Positions 396 through 63,806 of a stretch of 64,000 bases of DNA are shown piece by piece (position 1 is the first letter of the stretch; each line of letters begins with the position of its first letter). The stretch lies in NCBI GenBank assembly GCA_001783805.1, contig MFNS01000001.1, positions 128,649 through 192,648 of the forward strand, in the 5' to 3' direction. The stretch comes from Candidatus Levybacteria bacterium RIFCSPHIGHO2_01_FULL_40_16. GTDB taxonomy: Bacteria; Patescibacteriota; Microgenomatia; Levybacterales; UBA12049. Both the position numbers and the translations under genes were made by a program. The notes below the pieces were generated by a model. It was not told the origin of the DNA. It ran no database searches and was given only the letters and a program-made list of their open reading frames with translations.

Positions 396-863
396 GTGAG
401 ATTAAATCTACCGAAATTAATTGTTTCAATTGCGCTTCCTCTTATTGTTGGTTTTTCAGGTTCTGTTTTTACTGTTTCCGCGGTTCCTACTTGGTATGCA
501 ACTTTGAATAAACCCTCTTTCAGTCCGCCAAACTATCTTTTTGGTCCTGTTTGGACGATTTTGTATATTCTTATGGGAATTTCATTGTATTTTCTCTGGA
601 CCGCCAAGAAAAAAGGAGAAGGAAAAGCAATAAAATTATTCCTAATTCAATTGGTGTTAAATTTTTTCTGGTCAATAATATTTTTTGGATGGCATAATCC
701 GCAAGCGGCTTTTCTCGAAATTATTTCTCTTTGGATTTTTATTTTTCTGACAATCCGCCAATCATTACTTATTTCCAAAACTTCGGCCTATCTTCTGTAT
801 CCTTACCTTGTCTGGGTAAGCTTTGCCTCAATCCTAAATCTTTCCATAGTCCTCCTTAACTAA
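396..863 (+). CDS. tspO: TspO/MBR family tryptophan-rich sensory protein (5-TM membrane protein)
   Basis: ORF translation has the TspO signature WYATLNKPSFSPPNYLFGPVWTILYILMGISLYFLW and multiple hydrophobic helices. The start is GTG at 396, with no in-frame ATG nearby. Confidence 0.8.
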   Translation: MRLNLPKLIVSIALPLIVGFSGSVFTVSAVPTWYATLNKPSFSPPNYLFGPVWTILYILMGISLYFLWTAKKKGEGKAIKLFLIQLVLNFFWSIIFFGWHNPQAAFLEIISLWIFIFLTIRQSLLISKTSAYLLYPYLVWVSFASILNLSIVLLN

Positions 864-915
864 TTTCCTATTGTTTTAGCTTGAATATTTGTTTTTTTAA
901 TGATACTCTACCATT

Positions 916-14122: not shown

Positions 14123-17107
14123 ATGAAACCCGTAAAACAGAATATAAATTTTCCGGAATTAGAAAGAGAAATTCTAAATAGATGGCAGGAGAAAGGAATT
14201 GTAAGAAAGTATTTAGAAAAAAATAAAAACTCAAAAGAAAAATTTTCTTTCCTTGATGGTCCGATCACCGCAAATAATCCAATGGGAGTTCATCATGCTT
14301 GGGGAAGGACATATAAGGATTTGTGGCAGAGATTCTGGAATATGCGGGGAAAAGCTCAAAGATTTCAAAATGGGTTTGACGAACAAGGGCTTTGGGTTGA
14401 AGTGGAAGTGGAAAAAGAATTGGGGCTGAAAAATAAAAAAGACATTGAAAATCTTGTTCCGGGAGACAAATTTAAAAGTCTCGTAAAATTTATTAATCTT
14501 TGCAAGCAAAGGGTTAAAAAATTTTCGGGAGTCCAGACAGAACAAAGTAAGCGTTTGGGATACTTCATGGATTGGGACAAATCCTATCACACCTCCTCCG
14601 ATAAAAATAATTATGCGATCTGGAATTTCTTAAAAGTTGTCCACGAAAAAGGTTGGCTGTACAAAGGCCGTGACTCTGTTCCCTGGTGTCCGCGCTGCGG
14701 AACCGCAATTTCCCAGCACGAGATTTTGACAGAGGAATATAAAAATATAACCCACGATTCGATCTATGTTGAATATCCGATTAAAAACAGGAAAAACGAA
14801 TATTTAATTGCTTGGACAACAACGCCCTGGACTTTAATTGCCAATATAGCTCTTGCCGTAAATCCCAATTACGATTACGTAATTGCAACAGGGGAAGAAA
14901 AGGGAAATATATATTATCTGCTTAAAGAGAGCGCGGAAAAATTAGGTCTTAAAATCAAAAAAAATATTAAAGGAAAAGATTTGATCGGACTAAACTATTC
15001 TTCTCCTTTTGATAATTTACCAAAAGTGAAAAAAACACTGGGGAAATATCTGCATCAAGTTATTGCTACAGACGAATTAATTCTGCCAATCAGTAAAATT
15101 GAAGGAACAGGAATTATCCATATCGCCACCGGATCGGGAAGCGAAGATTTTCAGCTTGGTAAAAAAAACAATTTACCGGTAATTGAAGTTATTGACGAAG
15201 GAGGGAATTATCTGGATGGTTTTGGAGAATTTAGCCAAAAAAATGCCAAAAGGCATCCCGAATTAATCATTGACTTTCTTAAATCTTTCGAAAATGGCAA
15301 CTACTTTTTCCTAACGGAAAAATACACCCATAGGTATCCGACTTGCTGGAGATGTAAAACGGAATTGGTTTGGCGAGTGGTTGACGAATGGTATATTGCG
15401 ATGGATAAAAAACCCAGCTCAAAGTTCAAAGCTCAAAGCTCAAGGCCAGAGAATAAAACTTATAGGGAGCAAATGGTTGAGGTGGCAAAGAAGATTAATT
15501 GGATTCCCGATTGGGGTTTGGATCGCGAACTGGACTGGCTTAAAAATATGCATGATTGGTTGATTAGTAAAAAAAGATATTGGGGGTTGGCTTTGCCAAT
15601 TTGGGAATGTCATAAATGCGGAAATTTCGAAGTGATTGGCGGAAAAGAGGAGCTTAAAAAACGTGCAGTTAAAGGTTGGGGAGAATTTGACGGCAATAGC
15701 CCGCACCGGCCTTGGGTGGACTTGGTAAAAATTAAGTGCAGTAAGTGCGATGAAGTTGCTTCCCGAATTCCTGATGTGGGAAATCCCTGGCTGGATGCGG
15801 GAATTGTTCCGTTTTCCACCCTGCCGAAAGAATGGTTTCCGGCAGATTTCATAACGGAGAGTTTCCCCGGGCAGTTTAAAAATTGGTTTTATTCTCTGAT
15901 TGCAATGTCCACTGCGCTTAAAAAAATCAATTCCTTTAAAACGGTTTTGGGGTTCGCATCGGTCAGAGATGAAGCAGGCGAAGAAATGCACAAGAGTAAA
16001 GGAAATGCAATTGAATTTAATGAGGCAGCGGATAAAATCGGCGTTGATGTAATGCGCTGGATGTATTTAAGACAGGATCCCGAACAAAATCTCAATTTTG
16101 GAGTCAATGCCGCTGACAATGTCAGAAGACAATTTCATTTAATGTTGTGGAATGTATATAATTTCTTTATTTCCAATGCCATTGCCGACAGCTGGACGCC
16201 TCAGGGGATGGAAAAACAATCGGAAAACGTTCTGGACAAATGGATAATATCCAGGCTAAATAAATTAATTAAGGTTGTTACTGCGTCACTTGAAAAATAT
16301 AATTCCTTTTCTGCCGGGAATGCTATTGAAAATTTTCTCAGTGATTTGTCACTTTGGTATGTCCGCCGGTCACGCGAGAGAATCGGATTGTCTGCCGAAG
16401 ATGCAAAAGACAAAAATAATTGCTATCAAACTTTATGGGAGGTTTTAGCCAGCCTTTGCCAAATTCTAGCGCCTTTCACGCCATTTATGGCAGAAGAAAT
16501 GTATTTAAACTTAACGAATAAGGATTCGGTGCATTTAAGTGCTTGGCCGGAAGTCGGAGATATCGATGAAAAGCTGGAGCAGGAGATGGATTTTGCCAGA
16601 AAAATTTGTGAAATGGGGCATGCAAAAAGAAAAGAAGCGCTGATTAAAGTCAGACAACCCCTGGCACAATTAACAATTAATAATTCGCAATTAACAATTA
16701 ACGGCGAGATAGTTGAGCTGATTAAAGACGAATTGAATATTAAAAAAGTGGTTTTTGAAAAAGGAAAAGGAGAAATGTCAGTGTCCCTTGATGTAAATTT
16801 AACCAAGGAATTGAAAGAAGAGGGGAAAGCGCGGGATATTGTAAGAATGATTCAGGGCGAGCGGAAAAAAATAGGGACAGCATTGGATGAAAAAATAGAT
16901 GTTGTCCTCAAGGATTGGCCAAGAGAATTCGAAAATGAAATAAAAAAGAAAGCAATGGTTGCAACCTTAAAAAAGGGAAATAATTTTGAGGTTGTCCGCA
17001 AACCCCGCATCGACAGTCATGCATTAGAAACGCTTAACTTTTCACATCGCGCATCTTCGCTAAGTCCACGCTCAAATAAACGTGGCATTGTGGTGCGGGG
17101 TAAATGA
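14123..17107 (+). CDS. ileS: isoleucine--tRNA ligase (class I, type 2)
   Basis: HIGH-region variant PMGVHHAWGRTYKD, KMSKS variant MHKSKGN, four Cys knuckles (CPRCG, CWRCK, CHKCG, CSKCD) and a CP1 editing region. Contains in-frame heptamer repeats at 15419-15446 and 16686-16720. Confidence 0.95.
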   Translation: MKPVKQNINFPELEREILNRWQEKGIVRKYLEKNKNSKEKFSFLDGPITANNPMGVHHAWGRTYKDLWQRFWNMRGKAQRFQNGFDEQGLWVEVEVEKELGLKNKKDIENLVPGDKFKSLVKFINLCKQRVKKFSGVQTEQSKRLGYFMDWDKSYHTSSDKNNYAIWNFLKVVHEKGWLYKGRDSVPWCPRCGTAISQHEILTEEYKNITHDSIYVEYPIKNRKNEYLIAWTTTPWTLIANIALAVNPNYDYVIATGEEKGNIYYLLKESAEKLGLKIKKNIKGKDLIGLNYSSPFDNLPKVKKTLGKYLHQVIATDELILPISKIEGTGIIHIATGSGSEDFQLGKKNNLPVIEVIDEGGNYLDGFGEFSQKNAKRHPELIIDFLKSFENGNYFFLTEKYTHRYPTCWRCKTELVWRVVDEWYIAMDKKPSSKFKAQSSRPENKTYREQMVEVAKKINWIPDWGLDRELDWLKNMHDWLISKKRYWGLALPIWECHKCGNFEVIGGKEELKKRAVKGWGEFDGNSPHRPWVDLVKIKCSKCDEVASRIPDVGNPWLDAGIVPFSTLPKEWFPADFITESFPGQFKNWFYSLIAMSTALKKINSFKTVLGFASVRDEAGEEMHKSKGNAIEFNEAADKIGVDVMRWMYLRQDPEQNLNFGVNAADNVRRQFHLMLWNVYNFFISNAIADSWTPQGMEKQSENVLDKWIISRLNKLIKVVTASLEKYNSFSAGNAIENFLSDLSLWYVRRSRERIGLSAEDAKDKNNCYQTLWEVLASLCQILAPFTPFMAEEMYLNLTNKDSVHLSAWPEVGDIDEKLEQEMDFARKICEMGHAKRKEALIKVRQPLAQLTINNSQLTINGEIVELIKDELNIKKVVFEKGKGEMSVSLDVNLTKELKEEGKARDIVRMIQGERKKIGTALDEKIDVVLKDWPREFENEIKKKAMVATLKKGNNFEVVRKPRIDSHALETLNFSHRASSLSPRSNKRGIVVRGK
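15419..15446 (+). repeat. heptanucleotide tandem repeat (CTCAAAG-like)x4 inside ileS
   Basis: ctcaaagttcaaagctcaaagctcaagg, encoding SSKFKAQSSR in a segment of IleRS between WYIAMDK and REQMVEVAKKINWIPDWG. Confidence 0.8.
16686..16720 (+). repeat. heptanucleotide tandem repeat (CAATTAA)x5, one variant unit, inside ileS
   Basis: caattaacaattaataattcgcaattaacaattaa, encoding LAQLTINNSQLTING. Confidence 0.8.
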
Positions 17108-19657: not shown

Positions 19658-20218
19658 TTAATTATGCGGGTTATTAACCACCCCCATCCTGTTTAGCGGC
19701 CAGTAAACGAAAAAAGATCTCCCAACAATAGATCTAAGCGGAACAAAGCCCCATTCTCTGGAGTCCGAACTGCCATTCCTATTATCACCCATAACAAAAT
19801 ATGAGTCCGCAGGCACCAGCACACTGGCATTCTCTTTAAGAAATGATCCTCCATAGGTTTTTACGGAAGAAGGTAGATACTCATTCTGGTTAAGAAGCTG
19901 TTCGTTTACATAAACATCTCCGTTTCTGACCATTATTCGATCTCCCGGAACCCCTATCACGCGTTTTATATAATCTTTTTCAGAGTCATTTGGCGCCTTA
20001 AATACGATAGTATCCCCATATTTCGGCTGACCGAATTTGAGAGCAATTATATTGGTTAAAACGTATTGTTTATCAAGGAAGGTTGGATACATGGAATTTC
20101 CACTGACTTGAAATGGACGGAATAAAAAAACATATATCACCAGAAAGACTGCAAAAACCAAAAGCAGGGTTTGAATTGTATCCAGTAAGAAACCATAAAT
20201 TTTTCTTAAAAATTCCAT
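19658..20218 (-). CDS. lepB: signal peptidase I
   Basis: SPase I boxes GNSMYPTF and GDNRNGSSDSREWGFVP. The ORF was trimmed to the internal ATG at 20218, because the longer ORF would read through the tRNA locus. Confidence 0.85.
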   Translation of the reverse strand: MEFLRKIYGFLLDTIQTLLLVFAVFLVIYVFLFRPFQVSGNSMYPTFLDKQYVLTNIIALKFGQPKYGDTIVFKAPNDSEKDYIKRVIGVPGDRIMVRNGDVYVNEQLLNQNEYLPSSVKTYGGSFLKENASVLVPADSYFVMGDNRNGSSDSREWGFVPLRSIVGRSFFVYWPLNRMGVVNNPHN

Positions 20219-20283
20219 AAAACTATTGTGCTTGATTTGCTTTCCTTTGTCAATGCGAAGCGGATGTTGTAAAATGGTGTTGA

Positions 20284-20467
20284 GGACCCGTGGTTCAGTG
20301 GTAGAACGCTTCATTCACACCTGCCCGACTTTGTGAATGGACTTGTAGTTCAGAGGTAGAACGCTCGCTTCACATGCGAGAGCTCGATGGTTCGAGTCCA
20401 TCCAAGTCCACACAAAGTCCAGTCAGGCGGGTTGAAGAGGTCAGAGGTTCGAATCCTCTCGGGTCCA
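20284..20467 (+). tRNA. interrupted outer tRNA-Val(CAC)-like gene with a 112-nt insertion at anticodon-loop position 37/38
   Basis: The two halves form a perfect cloverleaf, so both halves are clearly tRNA-derived. It is uncertain whether the outer gene is expressed or spliced.
- Acceptor GGACCCG/CGGGTCC.
- D-arm GTTC-AGTGGTA-GAAC.
- Anticodon stem CTTCA/TGAAG, loop TTCACA|T.
- T-arm AGAGG-TTCGAAT-CCTCT.
- 5' half 20284-20319, 3' half 20432-20467. Confidence 0.5.
20339..20410 (+). tRNA. tRNA-Val (anticodon CAC), complete, nested inside the insertion
   Basis: Manual cloverleaf: acceptor GGACTTG/CAAGTCC, D-arm GTTC-AGAGGTA-GAAC, anticodon stem CTCGC/GCGAG with loop TTCACAT (CAC), variable AGCTC, T-arm GATGG-TTCGAGT-CCATC, discriminator A. 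No encoded CCA. Confidence 0.85.
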
Positions 20468-20469
20468 CT

Positions 20470-21270
20470 GTGGATATATGCTTGATTTGTAAGACAGAAG
20501 ATAAATATCCTCTTTGTAGGAAATGCGCTAAAAAACCTTTTTTGGTTGAAAGAGCAAGGCAAATTCTCGCCAGCATAAGCGATCTTGATTCACTAAGGAA
20601 GATGTACGATTCAAAATATGCCGAAATCAAAAATTTAAATACGTCTTCTTTCTGGAACAGCAAGTTACAGGAATCAAAGCTGGGCAAACAGGACGGCATG
20701 ACTAAAGATAGGGTGAAAACAGCATTCGGATTTTTGCCAAGAAACGCCAAAAGGGTTTTAGATATTGGTGCGGGAAATGGATTTATTGAAGAATTGTTGA
20801 ACCGGAAGAATGTTAAAATCTTTGGCAATGATATCTCGGACGTTTCTATCAAAAATTTGAAAAATAGATTTAGGGGTCAATTCCGCAAGGAGTCAATCTA
20901 CAGAATGAGGTATTCAAAAAGATTTTTTGATGCTATTTTTGCTCTTGAGGTGTTGGAGCACGTTGCGCCAAGCAAGATCTTTAATTCTCTGAAGAAAATT
21001 AGAAAAATTTTAAGGATTAATGGATCGCTCATAATCTCGGTTCCCACAAATGAGGGTTTGGAGAAAATGAAAAACAATCCTAGCGGACACACCAGAACTT
21101 ATACGGAGAATCTAATAAGAGCCGAGTTAAAGATTGCAGGCTTCAAAATTCTCAAACTAAAAACATTATACGCTTTTAAGAGTTTTTATGGTTTTAAGAA
21201 AATTTCCTCAAAAATTCTGCGAAACAGGTGGAAGCCCAATGATATAGTTGTTTTGGCAAAAATTGCATGA
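20470..21270 (+). CDS. class I SAM-dependent methyltransferase with N-terminal Cys4 zinc ribbon
   Basis: The listed ORF 20374..21270 begins inside the tRNA locus, so it was trimmed to the GTG at 20470. N-terminal CLICK...CRKC. Methyltransferase motif I VLDIGAGNGFIEELL and motif block LIISVP. Confidence 0.65.
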   Translation: MDICLICKTEDKYPLCRKCAKKPFLVERARQILASISDLDSLRKMYDSKYAEIKNLNTSSFWNSKLQESKLGKQDGMTKDRVKTAFGFLPRNAKRVLDIGAGNGFIEELLNRKNVKIFGNDISDVSIKNLKNRFRGQFRKESIYRMRYSKRFFDAIFALEVLEHVAPSKIFNSLKKIRKILRINGSLIISVPTNEGLEKMKNNPSGHTRTYTENLIRAELKIAGFKILKLKTLYAFKSFYGFKKISSKILRNRWKPNDIVVLAKIA

Positions 21271-22292: not shown

Positions 22293-24038
22293 ACCAAATG
22301 CAAGCAGAATAATGAAAGAAGACAGACTAATTAATGATGATAATTTACGCACATTAGTATCCTGAAAAATCACTTCTACCCGATATAATCCCTTATCTAA
22401 ATTGAAAGTGATTACTCCCGGATAATTTGGATTCATAAAACTGAATGGATATAAATTGCCGTTTACTTTGACAATCCAATTTGGGAAGTATAATGTATTT
22501 TCTTTAAAGGCCGCATTTCCTGATGTTACGCGAATTGAATAGGCATGCTTATTGGGCCCCCTAAGCCCCTCAGTAATATTTGCTTTTCCTTGGAGAATAT
22601 CCATGTGCGGGACAACTCGCTGATTGATGTTAAATTTGTCAGAGTTAACCCATATCGTTGTTCCCGGGCCAATTTTAGCCATAGTTTGAGGTAAATCATG
22701 TAAAATAGCGGAATCCGTTAATAGGGGGAGCATTTTTCTATTGCCCCAGTTAAGCATGGTCGTTGTGACTGCAAGCAGACACAAAGCGATAAGGAATTGT
22801 TTATTGGGAATATTTTTTATCACAATGCCTGCAATTATCGACATAAAGAATGAAGTTAATAAAAGCAATCTAAATGAGAATTGGAAGGAGTTAATTAAAG
22901 GAACAGTTTTCCATATTGGGCTTGAAACGGATTGAGTTAGAAAAAGAAGAATCAGAAATGAAATGAGAGATATTAAGTATAGATTTTTTTCCTTAAATTT
23001 TTCTTTTAATTTTTTAAAAAATAAATAAATTGAAAACAAAATAATGGCCCATTCAACATAGCCTACGATAAAAGAGAGTTCTCCCTTGTGTCCTTGGAAT
23101 AGGAATCCCCATCCCCATGGTGAATAGAAGAGCTGATCCAGAGAAATAAATGAAACAACACCTTTTGTTAATAAATTTGTGTATTTTGCCTCTAAAATGG
23201 CAGGCAGCCAGTAAAAAGAAGACAGAATTATTCCGAATATTAAAGAAAAAATACTGTTAAATATAAAATAAAATTTTTTCTTATTTTTATTTAGGAAAAG
23301 ATACAGGCAATAAATTGCAATAAACGGCGTTGAAATAAGTGATATTGCCTGATGTGAAAGTATGAGAAGCGAAAAACTTACACTAGACAGAAAGAACCAT
23401 CGAAAAGTAAGGTTTTCTGACATTTTTTTTATTGTCAAAAAACAAAATGGCAGTATTGCAAACGCAATTACTTCTCCAATTGCCACTCTAAAATGTAAAT
23501 CCACAAGGTGGTAGGGAGAAAAAAGATAAAATAACGCGGCAATAAATGCGGAAAATTTATTCTTAATCTCCTCCTTTATGAAAAAATACATTGTAATTCC
23601 CGACGTAATAAATGAGAAAGCTAGAATAATTTTAAGACTATTAACAAAACTAAATCCTAGAAAATGAAAAAATGCGGTTAGGTAATAAGGCAAGGGGTAA
23701 GCGAAAAGAAAAAGCGGGTAACCGTAGCCGTAAATCATTTCGCTACTCCAGCGAGGAATGAAAACCCCTTCTTTTAAGGATTCATAAAACGACATCGCAA
23801 ATCCTGCATGCAAGCTTAGGTCTCCGCTTTCATATGACCCTTCTCTAAGAACGCTAATAAGAGGTAGGAAAGAGACGAGAATTAAAAGAAAAAATAGATT
23901 AATATTGCGTTTTGGGTAGACATATTTATAGGCTATTATCCCCAACAATAATAGCGTAGAAAATATTAAATTTACTACGATCATTCTGTAAGGGTCCGGC
24001 ATATGGATTATGGTATAGTATAAGAAATAAATAAGCAA
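22263..24038 (-). CDS. large polytopic membrane protein, probable GT-C fold glycosyltransferase
   Basis: 591 aa with more than 12 predicted TM helices, an N-terminal extracytoplasmic loop with acidic residues (EGSYESGDLSLH), and a long C-terminal soluble domain. Architecture resembles ArnT/PMT/YfhO-type enzymes. Confidence 0.5.
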   Translation of the reverse strand: MLIYFLYYTIIHMPDPYRMIVVNLIFSTLLLLGIIAYKYVYPKRNINLFFLLILVSFLPLISVLREGSYESGDLSLHAGFAMSFYESLKEGVFIPRWSSEMIYGYGYPLFLFAYPLPYYLTAFFHFLGFSFVNSLKIILAFSFITSGITMYFFIKEEIKNKFSAFIAALFYLFSPYHLVDLHFRVAIGEVIAFAILPFCFLTIKKMSENLTFRWFFLSSVSFSLLILSHQAISLISTPFIAIYCLYLFLNKNKKKFYFIFNSIFSLIFGIILSSFYWLPAILEAKYTNLLTKGVVSFISLDQLFYSPWGWGFLFQGHKGELSFIVGYVEWAIILFSIYLFFKKLKEKFKEKNLYLISLISFLILLFLTQSVSSPIWKTVPLINSFQFSFRLLLLTSFFMSIIAGIVIKNIPNKQFLIALCLLAVTTTMLNWGNRKMLPLLTDSAILHDLPQTMAKIGPGTTIWVNSDKFNINQRVVPHMDILQGKANITEGLRGPNKHAYSIRVTSGNAAFKENTLYFPNWIVKVNGNLYPFSFMNPNYPGVITFNLDKGLYRVEVIFQDTNVRKLSSLISLSSFIILLAFGLMRSGFPKF

Positions 24039-41546: not shown

Positions 41547-41558
41547 AATTTACTCCAG

Positions 41559-41630
41559 AGCCGATGGTGGGAATCGAACTCACGACCTAGTGTTTACGAA
41601 ACACTTGCTCTACCACTGAGCCACATCGGC
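41559..41630 (-). tRNA. tRNA-Thr (anticodon CGU)
   Basis: Reverse complement folds as a tRNA with one A.C mismatch in the T-stem: acceptor GCCGATG/CATCGGC, D-arm GCTC-AGTGGTA-GAGC, anticodon stem AGTGT/ACACT with loop TTCGTAA (CGT), T-arm GTGAG-TTCGATT-CCCAC. Confidence 0.75.
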
Positions 41631-57727: not shown

Positions 57728-58060
57728 ATGGAACTTATGTTAACAAAAAAAGATATTAAGCAAATAATGCAGGGAGCTTTGAGAGAGTTCTTTGAGACCT
57801 TAGTCTTACAATATTTCGAGCATAACGAAAAGGAACATGGGGAAATGAAGACAATTCTTAAGTCGCACGATAAACGCTTTGATGATCTCGATAGTCGTTT
57901 TGACAGTCACGACAGGGACATTGATCTGATTCAGAGGAAATTGGAAAAGAGTGAGGATGATCATGAAGAAATTTTCAATAAACTTGAAAAAATTGACGGA
58001 CACGTCCAGGGTCAAGAAATAAGAATTTCAAAATTGGAAGACGTAGCCAGCATTATTTGA
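57728..58060 (+). CDS. hypothetical acidic coiled-coil protein
   Basis: 110 aa, highly charged, with a heptad-like pattern (KLEKSEDDHEEIFNKLEKIDGH). Flanked by 15-bp direct repeats TTTCTAGAGAATC(G/A)T at 57649-57663 and 58097-58111. Confidence 0.45.
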   Translation: MELMLTKKDIKQIMQGALREFFETLVLQYFEHNEKEHGEMKTILKSHDKRFDDLDSRFDSHDRDIDLIQRKLEKSEDDHEEIFNKLEKIDGHVQGQEIRISKLEDVASII

Positions 58061-58907
58061 TTTTCATCTTCTGAAGAATACTTTTTTTGGCGCATTTTTC
58101 TAGAGAATCATCGAGGGGATTTGGTACAATATTTTTATTGTATTTTTTTTCAAGGGCAATTTTAATTAATAAATCCGTGAACTGCGGATTTTTTGGCAGA
58201 ATTGGGCCGTGTAAATACGTTCCGAAGCTGTTTTTATAAACCGCACCTTCGGTTTCGTCCCCCGCCTGCCACGACTTGCCGTCTGGTATGGCGGGCAGGT
58301 CTCCATTATTTCCGTATCCCTTAATCACTTTTCCGAGTGGTTTAACCGATTTCCCCAAGTAAGTTCTTCCTCCATGATTTTCGAAACCCACCAGCGCTTG
58401 CTCATTGTCATTCTGACGAAGGTCAGAATCTCCTTTTGTATGAGATCCTGAAACAAGTTCAGGATGACACGGACTAATGGCGATGTTGCCAATTAAGCGG
58501 GGTTCATCGGGACCCGGGTTTTCGGTATATAGATCGAGAATATTTAAGCCTTTAATAATTTTTCCATCTGCTTCTCTATAATATTTTCCCAGGAATTGGT
58601 ACGCGCCGCAGATATAGAGTCCGGGGATTCCATCTTCAATCATCTCTTTTAATGCTTCACGCTTTTTTAATAAATCATAAGCGACAATTTTTTGCTGTTG
58701 ATCCTGTGCCCCGCCCATAAATATCAAATCGCACATTTTCAACTCATTAATCTTAAATTCTAAATCAAGCAATTTAATTTCAACTTTAATCCCGCGCCAT
58801 TCGCAGCGTTTTTGCAAAACAATAATATTTCCCCGGTCTCCGTATGTTGACATTAACTCCGGGTATAACCAGCCGATTACTAAATTGTATTTTGTATTAT
58901 GTATCAT
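58053..58907 (-). CDS. gatD: lipid II isoglutaminyl synthase glutaminase subunit GatD (CobB/CobQ-like GATase)
   Basis: Collinear with GatD: LYPELMSTYGDRGN, catalytic Cys context GLYICGAYQFLGK, VGFENHGGRTY, GTYLHGPILPKN. Carries a 26-aa in-frame insertion (SPCHPELVSGSHTKGDSDLRQNDNEQ) encoded by the palindromic element at 58407-58470. Confidence 0.8.
   Translation of the reverse strand: MIHNTKYNLVIGWLYPELMSTYGDRGNIIVLQKRCEWRGIKVEIKLLDLEFKINELKMCDLIFMGGAQDQQQKIVAYDLLKKREALKEMIEDGIPGLYICGAYQFLGKYYREADGKIIKGLNILDLYTENPGPDEPRLIGNIAISPCHPELVSGSHTKGDSDLRQNDNEQALVGFENHGGRTYLGKSVKPLGKVIKGYGNNGDLPAIPDGKSWQAGDETEGAVYKNSFGTYLHGPILPKNPQFTDLLIKIALEKKYNKNIVPNPLDDSLEKCAKKSILQKMKIK
58097..58111 (+). repeat. 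15-bp direct repeat TTTCTAGAGAATCAT (right copy)
   Basis: Right partner of the 57649-57663 repeat (same TTTCTAGAGAATC motif with the TCTAGA core). Lies 37 bp downstream of the 57728..58060 stop and inside the 3' end region of gatD. Confidence 0.6.
58407..58470. repeat. double-hairpin palindromic element, copy B (in-frame inside gatD)
   Basis: GTCATTCTGAcgaagGTCAGAATC ... GATCCTGAAacaAGTTCAGGATGACAC. Translated in the gatD frame with no stop codon. Confidence 0.7.
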
Positions 58908-63594: not shown

Positions 63595-63806
63595 GGGGCC
63601 GTAGCGCAATTGGTTAGAGCGGAACGTAAAACGTTCCAGGCCTCCCTGCTTGCCCCGTAAGATTGCGGGGAAATGGGCTCGTAGTGAAGTTGGTCTATCA
63701 CGTCTCCCTGTCACGGAGAAGATCGCCGGTTCGAATCCGGTCGAGCCCGCAATCTGTGGGGTCACGGAGGAGGTTGCGGGTTCGAGTCCCGCCGATCCCG
63801 CAGCGT
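63595..63806 (+). pseudogene. degenerate outer tRNA-Asp-like gene split by an insertion that carries the functional tRNA-Asp
   Basis: The 5' part GGGGCCG-TA-GCGC-AATTGGTTA-GAGC-G then an extra hairpin GGAACGTAAAACGTTCC, then CCTCC-CTG. The 3' part (G)TCAC-GGAGG-AGGTT-GCGGG-TTCGAGT-CCCGC-CGATCCC-G parallels the inner tRNA-Asp 3' half. The acceptor halves are imperfectly complementary. The inner tRNA is bracketed by inverted repeats CCCC..GATTGCG and CGCAATC..GGGG. Confidence 0.35.
63675..63749 (+). tRNA. tRNA-Asp (anticodon GUC), complete, nested inside a degenerate tRNA-Asp-like gene
   Basis: Manual cloverleaf: acceptor GGGCTCG/CGAGCCC, D-arm GTGA-AGTTGGTCTA-TCAC, anticodon stem TCTCC/GGAGA with loop CTGTCAC (GTC), variable AGATC, T-arm GCCGG-TTCGAAT-CCGGT, discriminator G. 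Confidence 0.85.

Follow-up and report, generated by a model that had tools for sequence, protein, structure and literature searches.

Several described systems come close to the arrangement considered here. Rickettsia palindromic elements (RPE) are reportedly small palindromic insertion elements, repetitive extragenic palindromic (REP) sequences and REPINs are mobilised by RAYT transposases, and Correia elements are bacterial MITEs, short for miniature inverted-repeat transposable elements. Phages and integrative and conjugative elements (ICEs) are said to target transfer RNA (tRNA) genes and to carry a copy of the displaced tRNA segment. In introns of the bulge-helix-bulge (BHB) type, the anticodon side pairs with the 3' end of the intron, and the two splice sites are placed in a 3-nt bulge each, with a 4-bp helix between the bulges. 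Finally, group I introns have been described in tRNA anticodon loops of Patescibacteria, tRNA-Asp included (PMC13011429). Here we analyse a 64,000-nt stretch of contig MFNS01000001.1 (hereafter the window) from Candidatus Levybacteria (Microgenomates, candidate phyla radiation (CPR)) of the Rifle aquifer series, in which the anticodon loop of a tRNA-Val(CAC) gene is interrupted by a 112-nt insert holding a second, complete tRNA-Val(CAC) gene.

We read this insert, with a probability of roughly 55%, as a mobile palindromic element that carries a replacement tRNA (the cargo), expressed from the promoter of the resident gene whose two halves surround it (the shell). A family of short G+C-rich insertion elements with conserved arms exists in Microgenomates-type CPR bacteria. 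Cargo and shell are cognate, and one and the same cassette turns up in resident genes that differ; protein genes contain empty copies that are translated in frame, and shells pair less well than their cargo. We infer that the cargo is transcribed and processed and that the shell is never spliced. The features of the Val locus, in window coordinates, are as follows.

20247-20275, plus strand: sigma-70-like promoter TTGTCA-17-TAAAAT belonging to the resident tRNA-Val, with 8 nt between it and the outer 5' end
20284-20319, plus strand: 5' half (positions 1-37) of the outer (resident) tRNA-Val(CAC), from ARAGORN and a hidden Markov model (HMM)
20320-20431, plus strand: 112-nt insert, a palindromic-ended element with a tRNA gene, absent from the orthologous site in L004 and L084-L087 (L numbers are our handles for loci)
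20320-20329, plus strand: left arm CCTGCCCGAC (family consensus CCTGCCCGCC)
20327-20335, plus strand: 5' strand GACTTTGTG of a copy-specific 9-bp helix, partner 20411-20419, from the predicted fold
20339-20410, plus strand: inner (cargo) tRNA-Val(CAC), a probable functional gene with no CCA encoded, from ARAGORN and Rfam
20411-20419, plus strand: 3' strand CACAAAGTC of the 9-bp helix, from the predicted fold
20422-20431, plus strand: right arm GTCAGGCGGG (family consensus GGCAGGCGGG)
20432-20467, plus strand: 3' half (positions 38-73) of the outer (resident) tRNA-Val(CAC), from ARAGORN and the HMM
Exon-exon junction of the outer tRNA-Val with the insert removed: ...GCTTCATTCACA^TTGAAGAGGTC...

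A first-pass annotation, made from the letters of the window alone, had proposed that two separated halves form one cloverleaf, and ARAGORN indeed rebuilt a perfect 72-nt tRNA-Val(CAC) from 20284-20319 joined to 20432-20467, with every stem that had been named (acceptor GGACCCG/CGGGTCC, anticodon stem CTTCA/TGAAG, T arm AGAGG-TTCGAAT-CCTCT). Given the native sequence, the intron mode of the program reports the inner tRNA alone; the outer gene is recovered once either the whole insert or the inner tRNA is deleted, in the latter case with a 40-nt intron. An HMM of 68 related tRNA-Val genes matches each outer half separately (E = 6e-6 and 2e-5). The inner gene, likewise predicted as a complete tRNA-Val(CAC) of different sequence, was found by both ARAGORN and Rfam (69.2 bits) and shares 76% identity with the outer one; it takes up 72 of the 112 nt of the insert, which contains no open reading frame (ORF). 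The insertion position is 37/38, giving the loop TTCACA|T when the insert is removed, with 36/37 and G37 equally possible by sequence alone. For 20284-20468, the minimum free energy (MFE) structure from RNAfold is a nested double cloverleaf (-80.6 kcal/mol; z = -5.3, with 0 of 200 shuffles as good), and the predicted transcript is a single unbroken rod that runs from the acceptor stem of the outer tRNA to that of the inner. This fold includes both long-range helices that had been thought to close the insertion, namely 20320-20325 with 20426-20431 and 20327-20335 with 20411-20419, and the local hairpin suggested at the 5' junction (CATTCACA/TGTGAATG) exists as an alternative fold.

The outer gene is the resident of the site. 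A tRNA-Val(CAC) lies downstream of the isoleucyl-tRNA synthetase gene (IleRS), in the order IleRS...ParB-LepB, in 68 of 80 Microgenomates loci. The comparison with orthologous loci suggested in the first-pass annotation found an uninterrupted tRNA-Val at the syntenic IleRS...LepB site of the nearest relatives, L004 (70% identity in IleRS) and L084-L087 (77-79% identity in LepB); set against the joined outer halves, these genes show 1-2 nt differences (97-99% identity, and 99% for L004). Since relatives are uninterrupted with so few differences, and since the inner tRNA reaches at most 80% identity to any of the 68 resident tRNA-Val genes, sequence comparison shows that the outer tRNA-Val is the resident gene, that the insert is the derived state and that the cargo is foreign to its site. 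The promoter at 20247-20275 is conserved upstream of the uninterrupted orthologs and is the sole promoter-like site available to the inner tRNA-Val.

Two observations on these orthologous loci stand apart. The sole tRNA-Val(CAC)-like sequence detected in locus L042 (17024-17096, minus strand) folds into a proper cloverleaf, lacks G18G19 in its D loop, has GGCGGCA in place of the T-loop consensus and is not called by ARAGORN. Several short-read contigs from related organisms also end in or near the tRNA-Val locus: L003 breaks inside the nested structure, and the contigs of L086 and L087 end within the uninterrupted gene.

The Val insert belongs to a larger family. A metagenome scan for a T loop followed by GGCRGGT and a second T loop matched at least 120 loci; by its design this pattern requires that a T follow the right arm and that the outer T loop be intact, so that both features are biased in the sample. 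At least 38 of the loci are nested, with the first T loop being part of a complete tRNA that is followed by the right arm and a 3' tRNA half. Family counts in this text (n = 37 or 38) refer to the nested loci among the metagenome matches listed, and the junctions of L118, L132, L141, L150, L199 and L019 were read by eye. The cargo among these listed matches is tRNA-Thr (CGT 7, TGT 5, GGT 2), tRNA-Val (CAC 7, TAC 3), tRNA-Arg (TCT 7, TCG 1), tRNA-Glu (CTC 4) or tRNA-Ile (GAT 1, TAT 1). Contigs with nested loci have a median G+C content of 41%, and several show Microgenomates synteny. As a negative control, the same pattern gave 38 matches on viral contigs, of which 0 had an inner tRNA. Outside the biased scan, L019 (Woykebacterium), which comes from an unbiased set of Microgenomates loci, has a tRNA-Thr(CGT) inside a tRNA-Thr(CGT) shell with similar insert ends, and L067 and L050 contain remnants with the same junction motifs as the nested loci. 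A viral, phage or plasmid origin was considered separately and rejected: three viral-contig patterns came without a nested tRNA, and no blastn match was found in phage or plasmid collections.

Loaded inserts measure 103-137 nt and empty copies 20-43 nt. Their imperfectly palindromic 10-nt arms, CCYGCCYGCC...GGCRGGCRGG, are conserved in 30 curated copies. The insert ends read either CCCGCCTGCC...GGCGGGCAGG or, as its reverse complement, CCTGCCCGCC...GGCAGGCGGG; because the two forms are mutually reverse complementary, they amount to one asymmetric end pair in two orientations. The window Val insert matches the second arm form at 9 of 10 positions in each arm. Position 3 of the arm helix is occupied by 16 C.A, 10 U.G and 4 Watson-Crick pairs (Fisher p = 1e-4), and position 7 is similar. 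No systematic complementarity was found in the spacers that separate arms and cargo (-3.5 kcal/mol for own partners vs -3.2 for mismatched ones, p = 0.31), which makes the 9-bp helix of the Val locus a copy-specific feature. Leader-trailer complementarity was also tried as a general detector and dropped, being uninformative in A+T-rich flanks.

Insertion points are constant within a tRNA type and lie at 33/34 in Arg TCG, 34/35 in Glu, 35/36 in Thr, Ile and Arg, and 37/38 in Val, with further inserts of the family sitting in D arms. The canonical 37/38 position stressed in the first-pass annotation thus holds for the Val locus but not for the family. In every readable case, removing the insert restores an exact 7-nt anticodon loop. 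In all shells that are readable (20 of 37 by script plus 6 by eye, among the matches listed), shell and cargo have the same anticodon, L149 being a possible exception (CCT against TCT), and cargo is usually 59-85% identical to its own shell. Copies are dispersed, three of them in the window and others in dozens of contigs, and show presence or absence at orthologous sites of the Val, Asp, GatD and IleRS loci.

Evidence for movement comes from pairs of cassettes with 95-99% identity whose shells share only 55-77% (L132/L203, L132/L199, L199/L203, L089/L144 and L152/L179). The mismatched shells are each internally well paired, and such near-identical cassettes in dissimilar surroundings indicate that the cassette moved between different resident genes. 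We infer that a mobilising enzyme acts on the family and that it spreads by transposition or homologous replacement. Among the possibilities raised in the first-pass annotation, it is that of a tRNA-gene cassette homing into cognate tRNA anticodon loops which these comparative data favour.

Empty copies are found inside four protein genes, where their lengths (39, 21, 21 and 21 nt) are all multiples of three and all are read through. The copy in the window is this:

58261-58299: empty 39-nt copy CCCGCCTGCC...GGCGGGCAGG, in frame in a GatD/CobQ-like gene, adding 13 residues

It lies in the gene at 58053-58907 (minus strand), to whose product it adds DLPAIPDGKSWQAG within a conserved GNNG-x-D-TEG stretch; the segment is absent from 8 of 9 orthologs and has a diverged counterpart at the same place in P0122. 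In the IleRS gene of L042, a 21-nt copy adds PPAGRAG where orthologs have a gap. Other empty copies sit in shell D arms (L096, L123, L157, L184 and more). Extra inserts occur in shells at about 1 per 150 nt of 5' half, and a rough count gives about 4 empty copies in 219 kb outside tRNA genes on the same contigs. Deleting single empty hairpins uncovered no otherwise intact tRNA, and elements in tRNA genes were seen only alongside cargo; the nested contigs also have 37 ordinary tRNAs and one further nested tRNA.

Hairpins were also noticed in several tRNA-Val-like sequences, which have two adjacent 15-nt ones, always at the same place in the D loop (L050 16600-16810; L069 19846-19960; L049 at about 16210-16270; L155 upstream of tRNA-Val(TAC)). 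The differences between their stems are paired changes, as in TGAGCCAGAGGCTCA + CCGTCCTCTGGACGG against TCGTCCAGAGGACGA + CCAGCCTTTGGCTGG, which could reflect either a conserved structure or repeated independent insertions.

The shells are less intact than their cargo. The full set of 17 scored stem pairs is present in 20 of the 37 shells; among the cargo tRNAs the figure is 31 of 37 (Fisher p = 0.011; rank test p = 0.001). The 5' half is longer than 40 nt in 9 of the 37 shells, in most of which extra insertions are readable, and shorter than 30 nt in 4; in two further loci (L134 and L173) no 5' half could be recognised upstream of the cargo. L050, L101, L131 and L067 contain stacked layers or lone halves, such as recombination between repeated halves would be expected to produce. 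In L131 (4032-4191), where a tRNA-Thr(TGT) is nested, cargo and shell share 96-100% identity and the unit of 3' half plus right arm is repeated twice in tandem, which suggests recombination or conversion between repeated halves.

Under the favoured explanation, an element with hairpin ends, loaded with a tRNA gene, would enter the DNA with a strong preference for tRNA genes and, at the Val locus, would insert into the resident tRNA-Val(CAC) at precisely the 37/38 boundary without duplicating the target. The resident gene would be split and so inactivated, its two halves becoming a non-decoding shell. Transcription would still start from the resident promoter at 20247-20275, the cargo having none of its own, and the outer stems, the arms and the copy-specific 9-bp helix of the transcript would form a long stem with the cargo tRNA at its tip. 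RNase P, 3' processing and CCA addition would free the cargo tRNA, which may then take over GUG decoding, leaving the outer halves as by-products in shells that could later decay or gain more insertions. Since insertion would kill the target gene, survival would be expected only where the cargo has the same anticodon and replaces the lost function, which would explain why inner and outer genes are cognate.

The window contains a second nested locus, a tRNA-Asp(GTC) in a tRNA-Asp(GTC) shell, with the insert at 34/35 (33/34 being equally possible). Its parts are listed below.

63595-63621, plus strand: acceptor 5' strand and D arm of the outer tRNA-Asp(GTC), identical to the uninterrupted gene of L257
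63622-63640, plus strand: extra 19-nt palindromic hairpin at 26/27 of the outer tRNA-Asp
63641-63648, plus strand: anticodon stem 5' strand CCTCC and loop CTG of the outer tRNA-Asp
63649-63761, plus strand: 113-nt insert holding the inner tRNA-Asp, with diverged arms CTTGCCCCGT...GTGGGG
63675-63749, plus strand: inner (cargo) tRNA-Asp(GTC), from ARAGORN and Rfam (67.4 bits)
63762-63800, plus strand: 3' half of the outer tRNA-Asp, with loop TCAC, stem GGAGG, T arm, acceptor CGATCCC and discriminator G

This second locus has the same architecture in a more altered state. The first-pass annotation had taken the Val arrangement to recur here, and this is right as regards cognate nesting; the Asp locus differs in its position at 34/35, in the extra 19-nt hairpin and in a C5.A68 mismatch of the outer acceptor stem. 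That mismatch is not native to the lineage, whereas a G.A pair in the D stem is. The hairpin is a perfect 7-bp one (GGAACGT AAA ACGTTCC), unlike the G+C-rich arms, and is present in L252 and absent from L257. The insert ends are related to the CCCCGT...ACGGGG arm variant of L101, L123, L134 and L150. An uninterrupted tRNA-Asp adjoins PolX in relatives L253-L256, and both the 19-nt hairpin and the 113-nt insert are derived. The unit is identical in three more assemblies and, with its hairpin, is also found in a second species, L252 (81% identity in PolX). Downstream of the nested tRNA-Asp, L252 further has about 190 nt of extra sequence (approximately 700-900, reverse strand) that is absent from the window, abounds in CCAGGC/GCCTGG palindromes and contains a GCAGGCAGG motif; this site seems to collect small palindromic inserts.

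A number of observations weigh against a mobile element that carries a replacement tRNA. No target duplication was seen at any junction examined, Pfam found no transposase or recombinase among about 50 ORFs of the window, and a search for autonomous, ORF-bearing copies between arm pairs 0.4-3 kb apart found housekeeping genes alone. No loaded element was seen outside a tRNA shell, which pure selection may not fully explain. Most shells (20 of 37) have kept perfect pairing, and the two wobble-type pairs of the arms (C.A and U.G) look like a specific recognition feature. The Asp unit adds to this list: outside the cargo, 3 substitutions and one 3-nt indel are all that separates the window from L252 over about 130 nt, with only 49% identity at the four-fold sites of PolX, and conservation ends at the outer tRNA ends, beyond which the flanks are diverged or unrelated. 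One of the differences restores a T5-A68 acceptor pair in L252; another breaks a T-stem pair there. Such conservation could stem either from very recent lateral spread of the whole unit, possibly by homologous replacement of a near-identical resident allele, or from selection on shell and spacers. That either would account for it is the main reason why our confidence in the replacement-tRNA explanation is moderate.

Much of the same evidence bears on a new kind of protein-dependent bacterial tRNA intron, in which an endonuclease would cut both strands at the base of the arm helix and a ligase would join the outer halves, one gene thus giving two tRNAs, the outer through splicing and the inner through RNase P/Z processing of the excised intron. 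The exact 7-nt loop restored in every readable case would follow naturally from splicing; the conserved arms with their two wobble-geometry pairs are a plausible feature for a protein to recognise; shells are mostly intact (20 of 37); and the Asp unit, shell included, is about 98% conserved where neutral sites are saturated, with one compensatory-looking change. An intron of this kind would, however, be expected to make empty copies tolerable in any tRNA gene, and none was found in an otherwise intact tRNA. It leaves the always-cognate cargo unexplained, as it does the four protein-gene copies that are all multiples of three and read through, and it sits badly with shells that are worse paired than their cargo, some of them truncated or without a stem strand. 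Nor is there a BHB motif, and the roughly 50 window ORFs scanned with Pfam include no EndA, RtcB or any other nuclease or ligase. On balance we think this intron unlikely, if well worth keeping in mind. Slightly more doubtful still is the specific proposal that the 10-bp arm helix, with C.A and U.G four positions apart, would be the recognition site of an RNA endonuclease/ligase system that excises the elements precisely from tRNA precursors, a nested locus then giving two tRNAs from one promoter, and we are equally sceptical that the family would be a third, protein-dependent and sequence-defined class of bacterial intron, some members of which encode a tRNA.

Other readings keep the outer halves as RNA without splicing, or deny their reality. 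The halves could act as a non-decoding leader and trailer scaffold that stabilises the precursor or guides RNase III or RNase P, as the continuous rod from outer to inner acceptor stem and the conservation of the Asp unit up to exactly the RNA ends might suggest; we consider this improbable, given that many members have lost one half or gained large extra inserts with the cargo intact, that cargo-adjacent spacers are not systematically complementary and that the ordinary tRNAs of the same genomes need no such scaffold. A split tRNA, also raised in the first-pass annotation, would have RNase P/Z remove the inner tRNA and the outer halves stay paired and work, with or without ligation. Pairing in the acceptor stem, the anticodon stem and the arm helix could keep the halves attached to each other, but 19 + 21 nt of insert would be left inside the anticodon loop, which precludes a normal decoding loop, and the shells decay; this idea is very hard to sustain. 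The archaeal/eukaryal framing, in which a splicing endonuclease cuts a BHB intron, has the 37/38 position of the Val locus in its favour and fails on structure: the MFE pairs, examined by hand, include no 3-nt bulges with a 4-bp helix between them, both junctions lie flush at the base of the single CCUGCC/GGCGGG helix, and UUCA cannot pair with the 3' end of the insert. With a bacterial host and family positions that range from 33/34 to 37/38 and include D arms, we give it next to no credence. A chimeric assembly of two tRNA-Val copies is as good as dismissed. It could appeal to contigs of related assemblies that break at the locus (L003, L086, L087), but the exact 184-nt core is shared by the window and two further, independent assemblies (NCBI GCA_001782525.1 and JGI 3300002105), the 5' junction recurs on a third contig, the Asp unit is identical in three more assemblies, and at least 38 analogous loci exist in unrelated metagenomes; the chimeric join that the first-pass annotation had named as a possible refutation thus found no support.

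Three further candidates were tried and rejected. A group I intron or another Rfam family in the inserts was not found, with tRNA alone matched and no RF00028 hit at E <= 10 at either locus (the positive control, L023, scored 50.4 bits). A split or permuted tRNA gene does not fit halves that are collinear, on one strand and under one promoter, with no BHB. An integrase-type (Campbell) or target-duplication origin of the loaded copies fails in that neither yields the observed order of halves.

The gene content of the window agrees with the bacterial, CPR-like setting assumed in the first-pass annotation (pol III alpha, L21, FtsW/FtsZ/FtsA, ParB, LepB, GatCAB, F-type ATPase and MurT/GatD), and its tRNA-Thr (41558-41630) and the following tRNA-Gly are both ordinary. 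Next to the Val locus, the longest LepB ORF (218 aa; window 19658-20314, minus strand) crosses the 5' half of the outer tRNA-Val. Public gene calls for LepB exist in 186-aa and 218-aa forms (P0001, P0007, P0046), the longer of which is probably an over-call caused by the unannotated shell. On the other side, a methyltransferase gene with a CxxC...CxxC motif near its N-terminus appears to start at a GTG at window position 20470, 2 nt past the discriminator base of the outer tRNA.

If the replacement-tRNA explanation is true, the family would represent a mobile element that spares its host on landing in an essential single-copy gene, by carrying a working copy of the gene it disrupts, and hence a very compact form of self-rescue. 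It would also offer a concrete way in which reduced CPR genomes turn over their tRNA genes and replace tRNAs laterally. If instead the protein-dependent intron were true, it would amount to a bacterial tRNA splicing system with a bearing on the origin of tRNA introns and split tRNAs. There is a practical side too: standard tRNA finders report the inner gene alone and miss the shells, and protein annotation is disturbed as well, as in the 218-aa LepB.

Full-text searches of the literature turned up no account of one tRNA nested inside another, of an element of some 110 nt that bears an entire tRNA within the cognate gene, or of the arms seen here. As for RNA-level systems, the Patescibacteria group I introns share with our loci the phylum, the anticodon-loop target and the fact that the interrupted gene is missed by standard tRNA finders; they are, however, ribozymes of more than 200 nt that match RF00028 (PMC13011429), whereas the window inserts are 112-113 nt long and mostly tRNA. 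L023 itself has a group I intron in tRNA-Asp (22515-22722) whose 5' exon ends in CCTGT, which corresponds to 35/36, the position reported for tRNA-Asp introns of Patescibacteria (PMC13011429); it also has a second tRNA-Val with a 39-nt hairpin in the D loop (about 16656-16767). Archaeal BHB introns, the split tRNAs of Nanoarchaeum and permuted tRNAs resemble the present loci in an interruption at or near 37/38, a G+C-rich junction helix and halves that can pair, but here the host is bacterial, there is no BHB, one transcript runs around a complete second tRNA and the evidence is for insertion at the level of DNA.

Insertion elements offer closer parallels. Like RPE, the elements described here are short, non-coding, palindromic, dispersed and present or absent at orthologous sites, and they too occur in RNA genes and in frame, translated, in protein genes; unlike RPE, they have much shorter 10-nt arms of fixed sequence and a strong bias towards tRNA genes, and they include copies that are loaded with a complete tRNA gene and sit inside the cognate one. 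With REP, REPIN and MITE sequences they share the form of non-autonomous, G+C-rich imperfect hairpins of 20-40 nt with conserved stem mismatches, yet they have no GTAG/CGTC tag, are not extragenic, come without target duplication or identified transposase and bear tRNA cargo. Phages and ICEs likewise target tRNA genes, often at the anticodon stem-loop, and bring sequence that keeps the tRNA functional. Those elements are kilobases long, encode an integrase, duplicate the 3' part alone and rebuild a hybrid gene, whereas the element here measures about 110 nt, has neither an integrase gene nor any ORF, supplies an entire, independent tRNA and remains flanked by the two halves of the old gene. 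Overall, the nearest known counterparts in kind are RPE, REP and MITE elements, and in logic the tRNA-targeting integrative elements that restore their target.

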